The notes under the pieces were generated by a model. The model was not told the DNA's origin and ran no database searches. It saw only the letters and a list, made by a program, of their open reading frames with translations. A stretch of 59,919 nucleotides of DNA from a virus: UHGV virus genome UHGV-0342645; one strand, 5' to 3'. Below, piece after piece: positions 10,799 to 19,417 of this stretch. How positions within the stretch are numbered: the stretch's first letter is position 1; each line of letters starts with the position of its first letter. The translations under genes and the position numbers were made by a program.

Positions 10799-10827
10799 TA
10801 AAACTTGCCAAGTGTTTTTGCACTTTT
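10799..10827 (+). promoter_or_regulatory. sigma70-like promoter candidate (TTGCCA-17 nt-TATAAA) in the divergent intergenic region
   Basis: -35 at 10799-10804 and -10 at 10822-10827; AT-rich surroundings; sits between divergently oriented gene blocks. Confidence 0.35.
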
Positions 10828-12545: not shown

Positions 12546-12759
12546 TCCTCTTGATGATTTAATTTGCGCGCGCTACGTAAGACAGCCTCCTTAGACTTGT
12601 TATCGCGGCTGCGGCTACCCGTGTTACCGGACCGCTGCAATAACTCCTCTCTGCCTTAACGCAGATTATAGCTTGATATACCTTCCGATCACAATAGTTC
12701 AATAAATTTGCCTCAAAAGCACTTGACTTCTCGTTTTTGATCTGCATCCGTTCAGGTTT

Positions 12760-13230
12760 ATGAAAGTTTATAGAGTTTATATTGTGAAGTATAAACAATC
12801 ACATAATACCAATAGGTACTATATACATTAATAATAAATCCTTATTTTATATATATTTATAGTTATTATTAATATTAGTTTAATTTGGTTTATTTTAGTT
12901 AGTTGACTGAAAGTTTATAAGTTTATAGGGGTATACTCCCAACTTTTTTCAGATAATTAATAGTATAGTAGTGATAGTGGTTTTTGCACGTTTTCACTAC
13001 TACTACTAATTATTTGTTTGAAAAGGGGGTAATAAGGGGAAACCGTAAACTTATAAACTTTGCTCTGTGTAAAAATAAAAAATTAGTGAATAGTGAGATA
13101 GTGGTTCATAGTGGCAAACTTTTACAAAGCGAGTAACGACGCACTATACACATTTTGCCCACTATGTACGCCACTAAGCACTATATTAAAACAATCCTTG
13201 CAAATAGCTAATGTCTGTTTTATAGTGGCT
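12760..13230. repeat. AT-rich intergenic iteron array: about 8 copies of ATAGTG(G)/CACTAT in both orientations, plus AAAGTTTATA(A/G)AGTTTAT direct copies (12762, 12910) and an inverted copy (13043-13062)
   Basis: Read directly from the sequence; 450-bp non-coding AT-rich stretch upstream of gene 13254. Confidence 0.55.
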
Positions 13231-13253
13231 TCACCAGTTGACTAGGAGGATTT

Positions 13254-14474: not shown

Positions 14475-16817
14475 ATGGAACTGTTTCCCGCTGAAATTAA
14501 AGCTTTCCCACAATGGGCGGTCGCTGATGCGGATAAAAAGCCGCTTGTATGGGACAACGATATCGGACGTTTGATGGCGGCGGACGTTACCGATCCGGAT
14601 ATGCTAATGACGTTTGAAGCTGCCAAAGGTTGCGCTGCTCATTTCAATAAACCTTATATTGGCTTCGTGCTTACTGCGCAAGACCCGTTCACCTGCATCG
14701 ACCTGGATGTAAAGAACGCAACCAATGAACCTGATCCCAAGAAGCACACGACGCCGGAACAGTTGCGCCGCTTCGAACAGATTATGACCGCGTTCGATAC
14801 TTACACCGAAGTAAGTCGCTCAGGATTGGGCGTCCACCTGTGGTTAAGAGGTAACATCGGTAAAGGTCGTCGGCGTGATGGTGTCGAGGTTTATAGTCAG
14901 GAGCGTTTTATTATCTGCACGGGTAATCCTGTCTATAACAAACCAGTTGCAGAACGTGATCATTATCTTACTATGCTTGTGAATGAAATTGATCTTCAGC
15001 GCAAGACATATGAAATTGAACTGGTAGAAAAAGATCCGGTAGAAGACGACGCAACTATTCACCAGCGTGCGCTTGAAGCAGACAACGGCGATAAGTATGC
15101 ACGCCTCTTCAATGGTGAATGGGTTGAAATGGGATTCCCTTCCCAGTCTGAAGCAGATCTTGCCCTTATTTCCATGTATGCATTCTACACAGAAAGTAAT
15201 GAGCAATGTCGTCGTCTCTTCCGTTACAGTGCACTGGGCAAACGTGAGAAGGCTAATAAGAACAATGTTCATATTGACCGTTGTTTACGCATGTGTCGTG
15301 GTCGCATGGAACGTGAGCGCATTGCTCAGGAAAACGTAGCGGCGCTGGCGCGGGATTACGCTGCCCGTATGCAAGCCGCACACAGTGCAATGCAGCAGGT
15401 AACAGAAATGCCTGTAACCGTCGAAACAACACAGGGGCAGACAGTAGTTGCAGAAAGCACATCCGTTGATGCAACAGCTATTGAATGGCCGCCGGGGCTT
15501 GCTGGTGAGCTTGCTAAATATATATACAAAGCATCCGTCAGACCAGTGAAAGAAATCTCTATTGTTACCTCGCTCGGATTTATGGCTGGGGTATGCGGGA
15601 AAGTATGGCAGATCCCGCAATCCGGTCTTAATGGATATTTTGTCTTAATTGCTCGTTCTGGTGTTGGTAAAGAGACGTTGAACAGTGGGCTGTCTAATAT
15701 AGTTAGCCAGATTCAGGACCAGTTTCCGCAGATTCATAGCTTTGTATCTTTTGATAGATGCGCTTCTGGATCTGCACTGCGTAAATCTTTTGCAGACAAA
15801 CAATCTTTTATCAACCTGAATGGTGAGTTCGGTAAGATTATCAAAGCAATGGCAACGGCTCCAGCAGGCTCGCCGATGCAAAGTTTCAAGAATGACCTTA
15901 CCGATGTTTATCAAAAGTCCGGTCAGATGTCTATCGTTGGTGGTATGTCTTATTCTGATAAGGCTAATAATACTGAAGCTCAACAAGGTGTGGCATATAG
16001 CATCATGGGCGAAACGACACCGGATACGTTCTTTGAAGCATTAACCCGTGAAATGATGGAGGATGGATTCTTATCCCGTTTCCATGTTGTACGCTATGAA
16101 GGTGATCGACCGCCTTTAAACAAAAATCAGCAGACTACAATGGATCAGCATTTGAAGGACATGGTGTGCCATCTTGTTAACCACACTTTAGTAACAATGG
16201 CAAAGCATCAGAGTATTGAAGTACAGTTTAGCCCGGATGCGGAAGCATTATGCGATCAGTTTAACGATGAATGTGATCGCAATATTAACGCAACCAAAGA
16301 CGAAGCAATCCGTCAGCCGTGGAACCGTGCTCACCTGAAGGTCTTGCGACTTTCTGCCTTGTTAGCCGTGGGTGAGAACTGGATCAATCCGGTGGTACAA
16401 ACCTATCATGTGCAATGGGCTTTGGACTTCGTGCGTCATGGGCAGGATATTATTATGAAGGAATGGCATAGCGGAGGCATTGGGACTAATGATGAAGCTC
16501 GTATCCGTACTATGTGTCAGGTCTGTGTGAATTATCTAACTAAAGACTGGGTGAAAGTTAAACGTGTAGATTTGCGCAAAGAAGGTATTATCACGCGAGG
16601 GGATATTACTACGCGTCTTGCAAGTAAGTCCGCGTTTAAAAACTATCATCACGGATTATCCGCTGCAATCGAGTCTACAATCAAGGAGATGGTTGCTATG
16701 GGTGCACTTGTTCCGGTAACACGGGAGGAGACTATTAAACTGGGATTTACTGGGGTAGCTTGGCGCATTACGCAAGATGTTGAAGGAATTATGGCAAACT
16801 TAGGTGAAGAGGAATAA
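14475..16817 (+). CDS. bifunctional primase-polymerase (prim-pol) N-terminal domain fused to a D5-like P-loop helicase
   Basis: 780 aa. N-terminal FVLTAQDPFTCIDLDVK (DxD acidic motif of prim-pol domains); central Walker A ARSGVGKET; the size matches phage primase/helicases. Confidence 0.75.
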   Translation: MELFPAEIKAFPQWAVADADKKPLVWDNDIGRLMAADVTDPDMLMTFEAAKGCAAHFNKPYIGFVLTAQDPFTCIDLDVKNATNEPDPKKHTTPEQLRRFEQIMTAFDTYTEVSRSGLGVHLWLRGNIGKGRRRDGVEVYSQERFIICTGNPVYNKPVAERDHYLTMLVNEIDLQRKTYEIELVEKDPVEDDATIHQRALEADNGDKYARLFNGEWVEMGFPSQSEADLALISMYAFYTESNEQCRRLFRYSALGKREKANKNNVHIDRCLRMCRGRMERERIAQENVAALARDYAARMQAAHSAMQQVTEMPVTVETTQGQTVVAESTSVDATAIEWPPGLAGELAKYIYKASVRPVKEISIVTSLGFMAGVCGKVWQIPQSGLNGYFVLIARSGVGKETLNSGLSNIVSQIQDQFPQIHSFVSFDRCASGSALRKSFADKQSFINLNGEFGKIIKAMATAPAGSPMQSFKNDLTDVYQKSGQMSIVGGMSYSDKANNTEAQQGVAYSIMGETTPDTFFEALTREMMEDGFLSRFHVVRYEGDRPPLNKNQQTTMDQHLKDMVCHLVNHTLVTMAKHQSIEVQFSPDAEALCDQFNDECDRNINATKDEAIRQPWNRAHLKVLRLSALLAVGENWINPVVQTYHVQWALDFVRHGQDIIMKEWHSGGIGTNDEARIRTMCQVCVNYLTKDWVKVKRVDLRKEGIITRGDITTRLASKSAFKNYHHGLSAAIESTIKEMVAMGALVPVTREETIKLGFTGVAWRITQDVEGIMANLGEEE

Positions 16818-16819
16818 AT

Positions 16820-16839
16820 AAAGGGCCTTCCGGCCCTTT
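16820..16839. terminator. bidirectional hairpin between convergent genes (AAAGGGCC-TTCC-GGCCCTTT)
   Basis: Stem-loop directly after the stop at 16817 and at the end of minus gene 16838..17068. Confidence 0.4.
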
Positions 16840-17068
16840 ATTGGTAGTTAAGATAGTAATCATGGATGTCGTACCTTGCCATAATTTCGGATGCTTCCGC
16901 CGCACTTTCCGCTTCTTCATAAGCTTGCTCAGCGTCGTCATAAGTACCGTAATACATCCAACCTTCACCCATTGGACGGATATATGCTTCAAATTTGCCA
17001 GTACGCGGGTGACGTACAACTTTATAATCTGCGCCCATTGTGCTATATACTTTATTCAGCATGACCAT
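16838..17068 (-). CDS. opposite-strand moron: stand-alone AP2-type DNA-binding domain protein
   Basis: 76 aa on the minus strand with a strong RBS (ACGGAGGA). YKVVRHPRTGKFEAYIR..GW.YYGTYDDAEQAYEEAESAA matches the AP2 domain consensus (YRGV...W.A.I.......LGTF.T.EEAA.AYD.AA). Confidence 0.5.
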   Translation of the reverse strand: MVMLNKVYSTMGADYKVVRHPRTGKFEAYIRPMGEGWMYYGTYDDAEQAYEEAESAAEASEIMARYDIHDYYLNYQ

Positions 17069-17309: not shown

Positions 17310-17618
17310 ATGAAAAAGTTAACAACCGTATTAATGTTTACGACTGCTTTTATGTTTTCTGCTAGCTGCATTAGCGCAACTAAGGATTGCCAAAAAGCGG
17401 TCACTGAGTTTCAGTCAAAGTTGCAACTTAAACGAACTGAATTGCAGACTAGCAACGACATTGCATTTTGTACAACTATTCAGCGTAAAGCTCAGCACGC
17501 AACAGTTGATGAAATTATGGAACCATTGAAAAACTTTAAAAACCCGGAACGTAAGTACTATGTGTCTATTGCCACTTATGCTTTCGTAACACGGTCTTTA
17601 GCGGAGGATTTAAAATGA
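17310..17618 (+). CDS. secreted or periplasmic small protein with N-terminal signal peptide
   Basis: Start refined to MKKLTTVLMFTTAFMFSASCISA (signal-peptide-like), with GAGGTG RBS; 102 aa. Confidence 0.5.
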   Translation: MKKLTTVLMFTTAFMFSASCISATKDCQKAVTEFQSKLQLKRTELQTSNDIAFCTTIQRKAQHATVDEIMEPLKNFKNPERKYYVSIATYAFVTRSLAEDLK

Positions 17619-17920
17619 GCATTGTAAATACTATCTGCGAAGCAATCTATGCAGAGCTTATCCGTGAAAACGTAAATAATGAGGACAATAACCAAATCCA
17701 AAAGATTTTGGTTGATCATAAAACTTATGCAGAGATTCGTCACGACAATGCTTTTCCTCATTGGTGTCATATTTATTATCCGCGTCGTGAGGATGAATCT
17801 ATTGTACTTACAATCATGGGCTATGCTATTGTTCCAACTTATGAAGTACAAGGTTTTGAAATACTTCTAAGAGGTGGTACTTTAGCACCAAAAGCGGCAA
17901 AGGGAACCGCGCAAAATTGA
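17615..17920 (+). CDS. hypothetical protein
   Basis: 101 aa; start overlaps the upstream stop. Confidence 0.45.
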   Translation: MSIVNTICEAIYAELIRENVNNEDNNQIQKILVDHKTYAEIRHDNAFPHWCHIYYPRREDESIVLTIMGYAIVPTYEVQGFEILLRGGTLAPKAAKGTAQN

Positions 17921-17923
17921 AGC

Positions 17924-18264
17924 TTGCCATTCAAGACTGCATCCTTTAAGATAACCACAGTTAACGAGGTTTAACAATTTAACAACATTAACTTAGTGAA
18001 CGATGCTTAACTCAAGCCCTTGAAAGTGGTAGCTGTACCTCCTTACAGCAACTACTTTCGCTGGGCTTCCTGGAGCGGACAGGGTAAACCCGCAACTTAC
18101 TGAACGATGTGAACGATGTTTAACGCGACGGCGCCAGATGTACCAAACCGTCACCAGCCTTTGGCGAGGCTGTACAAGTAGGCCAGGATAGACGAAGACG
18201 GCAGTCAAAGTAAGCTATCCGACAATCAAGAGAGCCCAGGAATCCTTATGCCTGGGCTTTTTTG
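17924..18264 (+). ncRNA. candidate non-coding transcription unit of about 300 nt: promoter-like TTGCCA-17-TAAGAT (17924-17952), internal GTGAACGATG(N)TTAAC repeats (17996-18011, 18109-18125) and TTAAC clusters, ending in a strong intrinsic terminator (18233-18264)
   Basis: No protein-coding ORF with an RBS occupies the region; the terminator is AGCCCAGG-loop-CCTGGGCT followed by TTTTTT. Confidence 0.35.
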
Positions 18265-18338
18265 TTCCTTGAGATCAACAGAACTTCAATATAAAATTCT
18301 TTATGAAGTGTTTTACATTAAAGTTATGGAGACAAACA

Positions 18339-18805
18339 TGGCAGTAAATATTCGCGCTAAAGGTCAACGCGGTGAGCGGGAAGTATGCGATTTCTTTAAT
18401 GCAATTTATGCCGAAATCTACGCAGAGCTGGGGATGCAGTTACCGGAAAAACCTATTGCTCAGCGTAACCAGAATCAAAGTGCGGTCGGTGGTTGCGACA
18501 TTAGCAATACGTGTCACCATGCGGTTGAAGTAAAAAACCATGCTACGCCACAAGTAAACACATGGTGGAAGCAGACTGTTCAATCTGCTAAAGAACTTGG
18601 CAGATATCCAGTTCTCATGTATAAAATAGAACGGAAAGGATGGAAGGTTGTTCTACCGCTCAATCCAGTTGTCTTTAGCAATGGTGAGTGGCAGTGGTAC
18701 GAAGTTAAAGATTCCATCCGCGCGGAGATTAGTCTTGATGACTATCGCATTATTTTTAAAGCTCACGCGAAACAATGGTTAATTGATCGCGGTTCAATTC
18801 AATAA
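18339..18805 (+). CDS. VRR-NUC / PD-(D/E)xK-like nuclease
   Basis: Start refined to MAVNIRAKG, with GGAGA RBS; it lies after the terminator that overlaps the longer six-frame ORF. The D...EVK pattern (GCDISNTCHHAVEVKNH) is typical of the VRR-NUC fold. Confidence 0.45.
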
Positions 18806-18814
18806 GGTGAAATT

Positions 18815-19417
18815 ATGACTGACGTATTAAATAACATGCACACTATTTCTATAACTGATTCTAGCGTAACTGATTCTAGCGTAACTGTTACACCCTTTGC
18901 GCCAACTCTTCTCGGGGTGAAGCGGTTAACTGATACGGCAATTCTACCAGCGTTCGCTACTGCTGGGGCAGCTTGCTTTGACCTGCACGCGGATCTCAAA
19001 AGTGAAGACGGTTGTGAACAAATCATTTTCTCTTACGAGCACATATTCCGCACAGGGTTGGCGTTTGATATCCCTAAAGGGTATGCGCTTATGGTCTATT
19101 CCCGTAGTGGACACGGATTCAAAAATGACGTGCGTTTGGCAAACTGCGTGGGCGTTATTGATAGCGATTACACTGGCGAAGTTAAAGTTAAGCTTACTAT
19201 TGATCATGATGGTAGTTTTACCGTTAGTCATGGTGATCGTATTGCGCAAGCTATGCTTATTAAGGTGCCTTGCGTGCAACTGGTAGAAGTAGACGAGCTT
19301 AAGACTACTGAGCGCGGTGCTAATGGCTTCGGGTCCACTGGTACGTCTGCCAATGTGGTTACAGCAGAGGAAGAAGCTGCTACGCATCCAATTATAACTT
19401 CCCGCTATTTGAAATAG
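18815..19417 (+). CDS. dut: dUTP diphosphatase (trimeric dUTPase)
   Basis: Motif RSGHGF and GVIDSDYTGEV (dUTPase motif III); C-terminal Gly-rich RGANGFGSTG (motif V). The N-terminal extension carries a 15-bp tandem duplication (18853-18882). Confidence 0.8.
   Translation: MTDVLNNMHTISITDSSVTDSSVTVTPFAPTLLGVKRLTDTAILPAFATAGAACFDLHADLKSEDGCEQIIFSYEHIFRTGLAFDIPKGYALMVYSRSGHGFKNDVRLANCVGVIDSDYTGEVKVKLTIDHDGSFTVSHGDRIAQAMLIKVPCVQLVEVDELKTTERGANGFGSTGTSANVVTAEEEAATHPIITSRYLK

Follow-up and report, generated by a model that had tools for sequence, protein, structure and literature searches.

A predicted stand-alone RNA gene of Seuratvirus coliphages carries a copy of the anti-Shine-Dalgarno sequence on a conserved hairpin

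The window analysed here is a 59,919-nucleotide stretch of viral DNA (UHGV-0342645) from a Seuratvirus, a coliphage of the CAjan/Seurat/slur01 type. Within its replication module, 1.1 kb downstream of a gene for a primase-polymerase/SF3-type helicase (NrS-1 HBD plus DUF3987), lies an interval (17924-18264) that contains no credible coding sequence. It is directly preceded by a gp60-like ORF of 101 amino acids (17615-17920, + strand; phrog_25787) and adjoined by genes for a RusA-like nuclease, a dUTPase, RNase H and a ligase. The interval is present in 35 phage genomes, which together with approximately 12 metagenomic contigs formed our comparison set, and the gp60-like ORF occurs in exactly the same 35 phage records (35/35), always directly upstream. 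A functional link between the two is possible; the gp60-like ORF has no Pfam match, and its predicted fold gave neither an RNA-binding match nor a recognisable RNA-binding fold. In several GenBank records, short 'hypothetical proteins' are annotated on the interval. An earlier note on this DNA, made from the sequence alone, had described a promoter-to-terminator non-coding unit here, and each element that it described within the interval is indeed found where the note had placed it.

The promoter (17924-17952, + strand) is of the sigma70 type, with a -35 element TTGCCA at 17924-17929, a 17-nt spacer and a -10 element TAAGAT at 17947-17952, giving a predicted transcription start at around 17959-17961. 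Its 9/12 matches to the consensus are weak evidence when taken from a single sequence, because comparable promoters are not rarer than chance in the region. The promoter is unchanged in seven distinct close relatives, and is nearer to the consensus in two divergent lineages, STP-SP5 and L041 (TTGACA-17-TAATAT). The same -35 element does recur in the early promoter that had been noted near 10799, although its position is 10806, from where 17 nt lead to TATAAA. At the other end of the unit, a strong intrinsic terminator (18233-18264, + strand) can be read directly from the sequence: an 8-bp G+C-rich stem formed by AGCCCAGG and CCTGGGCT encloses a 10-nt loop and is followed by T6 (U6 in the RNA). 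Our terminator scan missed it only because the loop limit of the scan is 8 nt. A terminator was found in all variants compared, including the VogelGryff-type relatives, in which the 3' end has been swapped and a different, non-homologous terminator stands directly 3' of the last helix. The downstream RusA-like/dUTPase operon has a separate promoter outside the unit (TTGAGA-17-TAAAAT, 10/12 consensus matches; 18269-18297, + strand), kept as TTGMGA-16/17-TAWAAY in STP-SP5, L041 and VogelGryff. Because this operon has its own conserved promoter, the unit would be insulated from it and its transcript, read from the + strand, would be released as a discrete molecule. An own promoter and a rho-independent terminator, both kept in relatives, are the arrangement of a stand-alone small-RNA gene, and we predict a product of approximately 305 nt (17960-18264, + strand) on the basis of the fold z-score, covariation and the lack of any conserved ORF.

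As the earlier note had held, the interval is non-coding. All of its ORFs are 71 amino acids or shorter, and on comparison with Salmonella phage STP-SP5 the ORFs on both strands prove to be broken by indels (8, 1, 2, 1 and 3 nt), while the nucleotide sequence stays conserved. The 71-aa ORF on the minus strand and the 21-aa ORF on the plus strand both shift frame in STP-SP5, and coding potential was rejected on these grounds. Pairwise, the RNA diverges by 1.9% and the promoter by 0%, compared with 12.8% at third codon positions of the RusA gene, and the RNA is 98-99.7% identical between types whose adjacent gp60 proteins are only 53-55% identical. These comparisons indicate that the RNA is under strong purifying selection.

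Folding of the interval gives a z-score of -4.76 for the + strand, against -2.17 for the - strand. Structure prediction and a covariation analysis in related phages, both proposed in the earlier note, bore out a structured RNA: compensatory double changes occur in 20 of the 43 modelled base pairs with 99-100% of cells paired, on a base of only three to four independent lineages (the window type, STP-SP5, L041 and the VogelGryff 3' domain). Fourteen of these pairs lie in helices P1 and P2 (98.9% of cells paired) and six in P3 to P5 (100%). None of 500 shuffles reached these pairing values, shifted registers dropped to 18-58% paired, and MAFFT alignments that were not fitted to the structure agree on the covariation. 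Recurrent G-U pairs are valid on the + strand only. The predicted fold, which covariation shows across these few independent lineages, comprises five helices. The note's reading as a small regulatory RNA therefore stands in part. A discrete structured-RNA unit is supported by the covariation, the + strand G-U pairs, the frame-breaking indels, purifying selection and the retained promoter and terminator, but typical base-pairing sRNAs are smaller and have less elaborate folds.

From its 5' end, the RNA (all features on the + strand) begins with an A/U-rich tail (17960-18013, 31% GC) that carries five UUAAC motifs at 8-19-nt spacing and the first repeat, R1. This tail is probably single-stranded; a hairpin predicted within it is lost in STP-SP5 through an 8-nt deletion. 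P1 (18014-18068) is a long interrupted hairpin of 20 pairs, 13 of which show double compensatory changes (98.7% of cells paired), and the L041 sequence of P1 folds into the same hairpin when folded alone. An invariant linker, CCUGGAG (18069-18075), contributes its last G as the first base of P2 (18075-18093), a 4-bp hairpin with one C-G to U-A compensatory pair and a conserved 11-nt loop, ACAGGRUAAAC, kept in all lineages. Beyond a variable linker (18094-18124), P3 (18127-18152) is a GACGG/CCGUC hairpin with a 16-nt loop, near-invariant in sequence in every lineage; L041 has one loop substitution and stem changes, and the helix still forms. In P4 (18155-18172; CAGCC/GGCUG), one pair passes from G-C through G-U to A-U across lineages. 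The P4 loop UGGCG (18162-18166) is complementary to CGCCA in the P3 loop (18132-18136), making a kissing or pseudoknot contact between the two hairpins possible; the pairing is invariant and so carries no covariation signal. P5 (18186-18220), formed by GGAUAG/CUAUCC around an inner hairpin GAC-GGCA-GUC (18197-18206), has five compensatory pairs, among them changes in the VogelGryff-type 3' domain, which has diverged, and in L041 a GAC/GUC flip. Its internal loop, with GAAG opposite AAGUA, appears to resemble a loop-E/sarcin-ricin motif. Finally, CCUGG (18070-18074) has two potential partners, namely 18183-18187 and the terminator arm at 18236-18240, and a conformational switch between these alternatives is possible.

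The RNA matches no known RNA family. The Rfam scan that the earlier note had suggested gave no match in the whole window at gathering thresholds, and at E<=10 only three noise matches, of 10-14 bits against thresholds of 60-80 bits. ARAGORN found no tRNA or tmRNA gene in the whole window, and these two results lend no support to the tRNA-like or RNase P-type alternative raised in the note. A BLAST search of all complete E. coli genomes and PLSDB plasmids returned no match to the RNA, so that, apart from the 9-mer considered below, it neither copies nor mimics a host gene. Pattern searches for distant homologues in viral contigs, metagenome and genome contigs recovered only close Seuratvirus relatives or chance matches. 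Two covariance models, one of P1-P2 and one of P3-P5, found nothing better than E=0.2 in nine genomes of related genera (filters were switched off for six syntenic loci of other genera and left at their defaults for the remaining three). The syntenic region of Providencia phage PSTCR7 shares a 13-nt stretch, TAACTTAGTGAAC, with the interval, but a local-alignment shuffle test gave this identity no significance (score 26; shuffles 20.9 +/- 2.4, maximum 29). Our literature search on non-coding RNAs, sRNAs and transcriptomes of Seuratvirus or Queuovirinae found nothing relevant. We are highly confident that the interval is a gene for a structured non-coding RNA, and we read it as a stand-alone gene that is confined to Seuratvirus and yields a product of about 305 nt.

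Discrete structured non-coding RNAs occur in other virulent phages, namely the species 1 and 2 RNAs of T4 (rnaC/rnaD) and the pRNA of phi29, whose complementary loops for RNA-RNA contacts recall the complementary P3 and P4 loops. Neither is homologous to the Seuratvirus RNA: the T4 RNAs lie in a tRNA cluster and are processed from there, while pRNA serves the packaging motor of a phi29-type podovirus and the window phage is a siphovirus. Siphoviruses package DNA by terminase, and we know of no packaging RNA shown for this group. To our knowledge, well-supported structured RNAs of such a size are few in virulent coliphages, and most are either processed from tRNA clusters or have no known function.

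The most telling feature of the RNA, which does not figure in the earlier note, is the apical loop of P1. With its closing A, the loop ACCUCCUU reads ACCUCCUUA (18037-18045, + strand), and comparison with the 3' end of E. coli rrsH shows that the same 9-mer forms the last nine nucleotides of 16S rRNA, where it is the anti-Shine-Dalgarno sequence. The window type and STP-SP5 share the loop ACCUCCUU and L041 has CCCUCCUU, so that CCUCCUU is unchanged in three lineages despite rewritten stems. The RNA thereby presents a conserved unpaired loop complementary to Shine-Dalgarno sequences, as do the sRNAs with anti-Shine-Dalgarno C-rich loops. In hairpins 7, 13 and 14 of Staphylococcus aureus RNAIII, in RsaE and in Bacillus subtilis RoxS, a stable hairpin likewise exposes an unpaired pyrimidine-rich stretch complementary to ribosome-binding sites, on a conserved loop with a variable stem, and in a stand-alone gene that has a promoter and a terminator to itself. 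The Seuratvirus RNA is not homologous to these RNAs in sequence or structure (Rfam negative). They are bacterial, mostly from Firmicutes, and have several C-rich loops, whereas the Seuratvirus RNA belongs to a virulent coliphage and has a single one. It combines an exact 9-nt copy of the 16S 3' end with repeats and a compact 3' domain, the latter two not found in the bacterial RNAs, and its pairing with targets is a proposal made here. Within the phage genome, a duplex-energy scan of the whole sequence revealed no outlier target, and its eight AAGGAGG sites, with 4.5 expected, do not amount to an enrichment.

The second distinctive feature is the set of repeats. The two near-identical 16-17-nt copies reported in the earlier note, AACTTAGTGAACGATG (17990-18005) and AACTTACTGAACGATG (18094-18109), agree at 15 of 16 positions, at a distance of 104 nt; a third copy follows the second in tandem. 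Exact GAACGATG occurs four times in 60 kb, three of them inside the interval. The clustering of TTAAC that the note had pointed out is equally clear, with six copies in the RNA against 0.31 expected, and AACGATG occurs three times against 0.03 expected. R1 (17990-18011), AACUUAGUGAACGAUGCUUAAC, lies in the 5' tail, while R2 and R3 form the variable linker between P2 and P3 (18094-18124, + strand; AACUUACUGAACGAUG UGAACGAUG UUUAAC), which TRF resolves into 2.1 copies of a 9-nt period. This linker contains an extra copy in Dru_SM1 and UUAACGAUG twice in L041, and in the metagenomic contig L030 it holds a structured insertion of about 100 nt that has no match in phage genomes. Repeats are present in every lineage, in variable copy number. 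Their reading in the earlier note as a protein-binding array is possible.

We can now propose a working model for this RNA, as a structured RNA gene that acts in trans through loop pairing and through repeats and a 3' domain that recruit protein; taken as a whole, we give this explanation a probability of about 0.5. Host sigma70 RNA polymerase would initiate at the promoter (17924-17952) and transcription would stop at the intrinsic terminator (18233-18264), as the conserved signals suggest, and the RNA would then work in trans during infection. The P1 hairpin would display CCUCCUU for pairing with purine-rich, Shine-Dalgarno-like sequences of host or phage mRNAs, disturbing translation initiation or mRNA fate in the manner of the C-rich loops of RNAIII, RoxS and RsaE. 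The repeats, together with the compact 3' domain, would draw in a protein, a purely hypothetical chaperone or sequestered factor. The P1 loop, the UUAAC/AACGAUG repeat array, the P3 and P4 loops and the loop-E-like loop of P5 are likely to be the working surfaces, because they are conserved though unpaired. The parts of this model differ in strength. Action in trans is somewhat better founded than the model as a whole, and we consider it rather probable, while loop pairing as the mechanism is tentative and on balance doubtful; an exact anti-Shine-Dalgarno copy would pair with most mRNAs and leave specificity unexplained.

It is conceivable, if unlikely, that the repeats are the functional centre of the RNA, and that UUAAC/AACGAUG titrates or assembles a multimeric RNA-binding protein of host or phage, with the CCUCCUU loop incidental or structural. 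The repeats are highly enriched, single-stranded in the consensus fold, of the same sense, 8-10 nt apart and present in all lineages in variable number; the U6 tail and an A-rich tail may be compatible with binding of the Hfq type, and gp60 accompanies the RNA throughout. Such an RNA would recall CsrB, CsrC and RsmZ, which share its size range (250-370 nt), a short motif repeated at accessible positions and a rho-independent terminator. It differs from them in its motif, which is UUAAC/AACGAUG and not GGA, in carrying far fewer copies, placed in linkers and not in hairpin loops, and in having only a hypothetical partner protein. GGA motifs of the CsrA type are not enriched (4 observed against 5.2 expected by shuffling), and a CsrA sponge of the CsrB/RsmZ type was rejected on this basis. 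Furthermore, we know of no protein that recognises UUAAC/AACGAUG motifs, and titration by the repeats would leave the invariance of the P1 loop unexplained.

Both a role in replication and a role as a leader of the downstream operon are less likely than a trans-acting RNA. As part of a replication origin, the repeats would be iterons for the phage primase-polymerase/helicase or another initiator and the A/T-rich 5' part an unwinding element; transcription would open the DNA, and the conserved hairpins would do their work either in the RNA, which would serve as a primer or form an R-loop, or in the + strand DNA that is displaced. The RNA's position in the replication module, beside the helicase and nuclease genes, fits this view, and same-sense direct repeats of variable copy number next to an A/T-rich region (31% GC) correspond to an iteron arrangement. 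The + strand covariation also fits, because the displaced strand of an R-loop has the same sequence as the RNA. ColE1 RNA II and the origin transcript of lactococcal phage c2 provide precedents for origin transcripts. A further precedent is the archaeal plasmid pRN1, which requires a stem-loop-containing region downstream of its prim-pol gene (PMC4234260). The Seuratvirus unit shares with these origins its place beside a prim-pol/helicase gene, direct repeats, an A/T-rich stretch and transcribed conserved stem-loops, yet it departs from them in its strong terminator, its G+C-rich core (52%, compared with 44% for the genome) and its restriction to one genus. Moreover, the window holds a better origin candidate: the non-coding region 12700-13250 has a GC content of 15-39%, is densely packed with direct and inverted repeats and lies at the minimum of the cumulative GC skew. 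The terminator is retained even where the 3' end has been replaced, the element was not found in the tested genomes of Nonagvirus, Nipunavirus, EC151, PSTCR7 and others with the same primase family, and the invariance of the P1 loop sequence has no obvious role in an origin. Enzymes of the prim-pol class should not, in addition, need an RNA primer. We therefore regard a function in replication, itself a proposal from sequence, as quite unlikely.

We rate no higher the idea that the unit is a cis-acting leader or attenuator of the RusA-like/dUTPase operon, in which the RNA, as a riboswitch-like sensor or an antitermination cassette, decides on read-through of the terminator. The unit does lie directly upstream of a same-strand operon and end in a terminator, its size and complexity are typical of riboswitch leaders, and other genera carry unrelated structured, terminator-ended units at the same position upstream of a RusA-like gene (PSTCR7, z=-5.1; Nonagvirus). 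By its complementarity to the terminator's 5' arm, CCUGGAG/CUGGGCUU (18061-18074) could form an anti-terminator. This pairing is lost in STP-SP5, where the P1 strand has changed and the terminator has not changed to match, and is impossible with the VogelGryff-type terminator; an anti-terminator switch was rejected accordingly. A conserved promoter separates the terminator from the operon, the RNA is constant while the next gene downstream varies (RusA-like, HNH endonuclease or ORFs of 82-100 aa), and Rfam contains no matching riboswitch or leader family. Lambda 6S RNA (pR'-tR') and HK022 put are similar in being short phage transcripts that start at a constitutive-looking promoter and stop at a strong terminator shortly before an operon, and RNA structure matters in the put RNAs as in the Seuratvirus RNA. 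The separate promoter after the terminator and the variable downstream gene set the latter apart from both; it is also much more elaborately folded than lambda 6S, and neither an antiterminator of the Q/N type nor a qut, nut or put signature was identified for it. Lastly, the view that the interval has no function of its own, but is the 3' UTR and terminator of the upstream operon (the terminator would also stop primase-operon transcripts) or a small-protein gene, as the database annotations imply, is barely credible and already contradicted by the comparative data, given a divergence six- to seven-fold below that of synonymous sites, 20 compensatory pairs, a conserved promoter and indels in relatives that break every ORF.

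Returning to the trans-acting RNA, a bolder version of this model is that it represents a new class of large phage RNAs acting as mimics or interaction partners of the translation apparatus, and unites an exact copy of the 16S anti-Shine-Dalgarno tail on a hairpin, a loop-E/sarcin-ricin-like loop and a repeat array. We consider this version speculative and improbable. If it were true, the RNA would compete with 30S subunits for Shine-Dalgarno sequences; alternatively, it would be a decoy that draws off a defence nuclease or host factor able to recognise the 3' end of 16S rRNA, or nucleate a phage-specific ribonucleoprotein with the co-inherited gp60. In each case it would constitute an RNA-based host-takeover or anti-defence device in a virulent coliphage.

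The finding also has more immediate consequences. It corrects the annotation of several GenBank records, in which hypothetical proteins have been placed on the RNA, and the RNA would add a new family to RNA databases. Several phages in the public BASEL collection carry the gene and can be grown on E. coli K-12, which makes it genetically accessible. It offers a directly testable entry to the manipulation of host translation, or of an RNA-binding protein, by an RNA of a lytic phage.

The interval at 17924-18264 can be read, with a probability of about 0.9, as the gene of a structured non-coding RNA, previously undescribed and found in neither Rfam nor the literature searched. The window is a nearly complete Seuratvirus genome (Queuovirinae), with CAjan, Seurat, slur01, Skure and the BASEL phages GottfriedDienst, SeppeHuegi, KurtStettler, WildeMaa and VogelGryff among its relatives. 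The locus sits within the rightward replication/recombination module, 1.1 kb downstream of the prim-pol/helicase gene (14475-16817), between a 101-aa ORF resembling CAjan gp60 (phrog_25787; 17615-17920) and a RusA-like/PDDEXK nuclease gene at about 18329-18805. The longest nuclease ORF, annotated so in some records, spans 18248-18805, with its ATG inside the terminator loop (18248); a Pfam match and a GGAG ribosome-binding site indicate a start at about 18329-18338. Elsewhere in the module, the N-terminal extension of the dUTPase ORF carries a perfect 15-nt tandem repeat (18852-18887; TAACTGATTCTAGCG, 2.4 copies) encoding the peptide repeat SVTDSSVTDSSVT. A small minus-strand ORF just past the primase gene (16838-17068) has a weak AP2-domain match (E=0.006) and may encode a DNA-binding regulator; Nonagvirus and PSTCR7 genomes have a similarly placed ORF.

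The predicted RNA is bounded by the start and stop signals that the earlier note had read from the sequence. The promoter, TTGCCA-17-TAAGAT at 17924-17952, was found by a scan in which a match on a single sequence is no better than chance, and is credible because of the comparative data. The strong intrinsic terminator at 18233-18264 (AGCCCAGG, a 10-nt loop, CCTGGGCT and T6) was read from the sequence, our scan having missed it only because its loop limit was 8 nt. The two near-identical repeats are likewise present: AACTTAGTGAACGATG and AACTTACTGAACGATG agree at 15 of 16 positions, 104 nt apart, and a third copy follows the second in tandem. Of the four exact copies of GAACGATG in the 60 kb, three lie within the locus. 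The reported clustering of TTAAC was also recovered (6 within the RNA versus 0.31 expected), together with an excess of AACGATG (3 versus 0.03).

A second conserved promoter lies 3' of the terminator, at 18269-18297. Comparison with L003, L004, L005, L043 and L044 marks terminator and promoter together (18233-18297) as a recombination junction, directly after which the cargo varies: an HNH endonuclease in VogelGryff, Dru_SM1 and L043, and extra 82-100-aa ORFs in STP-SP5 and L044. Split BLAST matches suggest a further insertion, of ~300 bp, in SHIN8, WildeMaa and Greed, probably also at this junction. In its layout the junction recalls promoter/stem-loop shuffling motifs known from T4-like phages.

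Several GenBank records annotate hypothetical proteins at the RNA locus. No minus-strand ORF there exceeds 71 aa, the longest on the plus strand reach 21-27 aa, and comparison with the divergent Salmonella phage STP-SP5, 79% identical here, bears out the earlier view that there is no credible CDS. Indels of 8, 1, 2, 1 and 3 nt shift every frame while the nucleotides around them are unchanged, which rules out a protein-coding function, and the STP-SP5 ORFs have only short stretches in common with those of the window. Sequence comparison shows strong selection on the locus. Mean pairwise divergence among seven distinct close relatives is 0% for the promoter and 1.9% for the RNA; the RusA-like gene, in the same seven, diverges by 4.5% overall and by 12.8% at third codon positions. 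Furthermore, two types that share 98-99.7% identity in the RNA have gp60 proteins with only 53-55% identity.

The earlier note proposed examining structure and covariation in related phages, and the results indicate that the product of the locus is a folded plus-strand RNA with a conserved fold. Folded as RNA, the plus strand gave z = -4.76 and its complement z = -2.17. RNAalifold predicted 88 pairs from nine sequences, with compensatory changes in 13. More divergent copies were reached via gp60 homologues and their contigs, the most useful being the ENA metagenome contigs L041 and L042, and pairs were counted in alignments built with two covariance models. Both sides have changed in 14 of the 24 pairs of helices P1 and P2 (98.9% of cells paired) and in 6 of the 19 of P3-P5 (100%), a signal that comes from three or four independent lineages and does not extend to P3, P4 and a possible loop-loop contact, which are invariant. 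None of 500 shuffles reached the observed pairing values, shifted registers fell to 18-58% paired, and STP-SP5 gave the same result when aligned with MAFFT without reference to the structure. Several pairs have G-U as an intermediate or settled state, which on the opposite strand would read C-A.

The RNA opens with a 5' tail (17960-18013; 31% GC) bearing five UUAAC motifs and repeat R1. P1 (18014-18068) is an interrupted hairpin of 20 pairs with the apical loop ACCUCCUU; an invariant linker, CCUGGAG, separates it from P2 (18075-18093; 4 bp, loop ACAGGRUAAAC). CCUGG in this linker (18070-18074) can pair with CCAGG either at the foot of P5 (18183-18187) or in the terminator 5' arm (18236-18240), and may represent a long-range closing helix, a conformational switch or coincidence. 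The tandem-repeat linker containing R2 and R3 (18094-18124) is the variable spot of the RNA: Dru_SM1 has one extra repeat copy, L041 has UUAACGAUG twice, and the metagenomic sequence L030 (ERZ1026901 NODE-154) carries between R2 and R3 a ~100-nt insertion (L030:1137-1250) that folds as its own hairpin domain and matched nothing in the phage genomes searched. The loop of P3 (18127-18152) contains CGCCA, complementary to UGGCG in the loop of P4 (18155-18172). P5 (18186-18220) encloses an inner hairpin and has a conserved GAAG / AAGUA internal loop that appears to be loop-E-like. Phages of the VogelGryff group have a diverged version in place of P5, with the same pairing, and an unrelated terminator at the same distance, beside an inserted HNH endonuclease gene; the retention of a terminator is good evidence for the importance of the RNA's 3' end.

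Conservation thus covers the plus-strand fold, the start and stop signals and unpaired elements. Among the last, ACCUCCUUA at 18037-18045 exactly matches the final 9 nt of E. coli 16S rRNA (verified on rrsH), an identity noticed after the fact, with an estimated chance of about 0.002 for a single match in this interval. The match carries weight because the window type, STP-SP5 and L041 all keep an unpaired CCUCCUU as the apical loop, despite changes among them in 13 of the 20 pairs of P1. The mechanism we favour, with low confidence, would be pairing of this loop with purine tracts of the Shine-Dalgarno type, in the manner of the C-rich loops of RNAIII, RoxS and RsaE, together with protein binding by the repeats and 3' domain. 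Pairing of the loop with mRNA is itself doubtful: an exact anti-Shine-Dalgarno sequence lacks specificity, and a search of the phage genome for a privileged target found none. Because the conserved promoter follows the terminator and the downstream gene varies, we infer that the RNA is released as a discrete molecule and, with somewhat better than even odds, acts in trans.

About as likely as loop pairing is that the RNA is purely a protein sponge, a reading weakened by the lack of a known partner and of any enrichment of GGA motifs; the predicted model of gp60 (pLDDT 85) resembles only an HK97-type subdomain. A replication origin element fits less well with a G+C-rich, terminator-ended unit restricted to a single genus, but the unit's location, iteron-like repeats and A/T-rich tail, and precedents such as pRN1 (PMC4234260), give this reading real attractions. 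A far better candidate is 12700-13250, ~550 bp of non-coding sequence (15-39% GC) that lies upstream of the replication genes and coincides with the minimum of the cumulative GC skew. Direct and inverted repeats are numerous there: AAAGTTTATA is found in both orientations, and 12910-12925 and 13046-13061 form a perfect 16-nt inverted repeat. The corresponding place in Nonagviruses is a gap of ~1 kb. The stretch is a strong candidate for a replication origin or major regulatory region. A cis-acting leader of the downstream operon fails, with a promoter intervening before a variable downstream gene and no conserved anti-terminator pairing.

Copies of the structured RNA are present in 35 phage records and in about a dozen contigs from metagenomes or IMG/VR. 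All the phage records are Seuratvirus, as judged from the taxonomy of those opened, and some are named for Cronobacter, Aeromonas or Salmonella hosts. Homologues of gp60 occur in exactly the same 35 records. Searches of E. coli genomes, plasmids and GTDB genomes returned no match, nor did Rfam and tRNA searches, which leaves the tRNA-like reading of the earlier note unsupported. The covariance models were negative on the Nonagvirus, Nipunavirus, Craquatrovirus PSTCR7, EC151, HTN2, MMDA13 and S0112 genomes tested; a weak P1/P2-model match in an unannotated gap of Enterobacter phage EC151 (L034:10060-10144; 14.4 bits, E=0.21), a long hairpin then CUGGAG without the CCUCCUU loop, is probably chance. 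Nipunaviruses and EC151 have no gap at the equivalent position. Nonagviruses and PSTCR7 instead carry unrelated, terminator-ended structured units in the same position upstream of the RusA-like gene. That of Providencia phage PSTCR7 (L009:8795-9048) folds with z=-5.1, and that of Nonagviruses (phage 9g, L038:10036-10216), with a C/U-rich apical region (ACCCCUUUUC), is 93-100% conserved across 18 genomes; both may be functional analogues of the RNA. Absence from collinear relatives had been named as evidence against an RNA gene. The RNA is present within the genus and missing only outside it, and we therefore read it as a genus-specific accessory gene, one that is easy to test in available phages.
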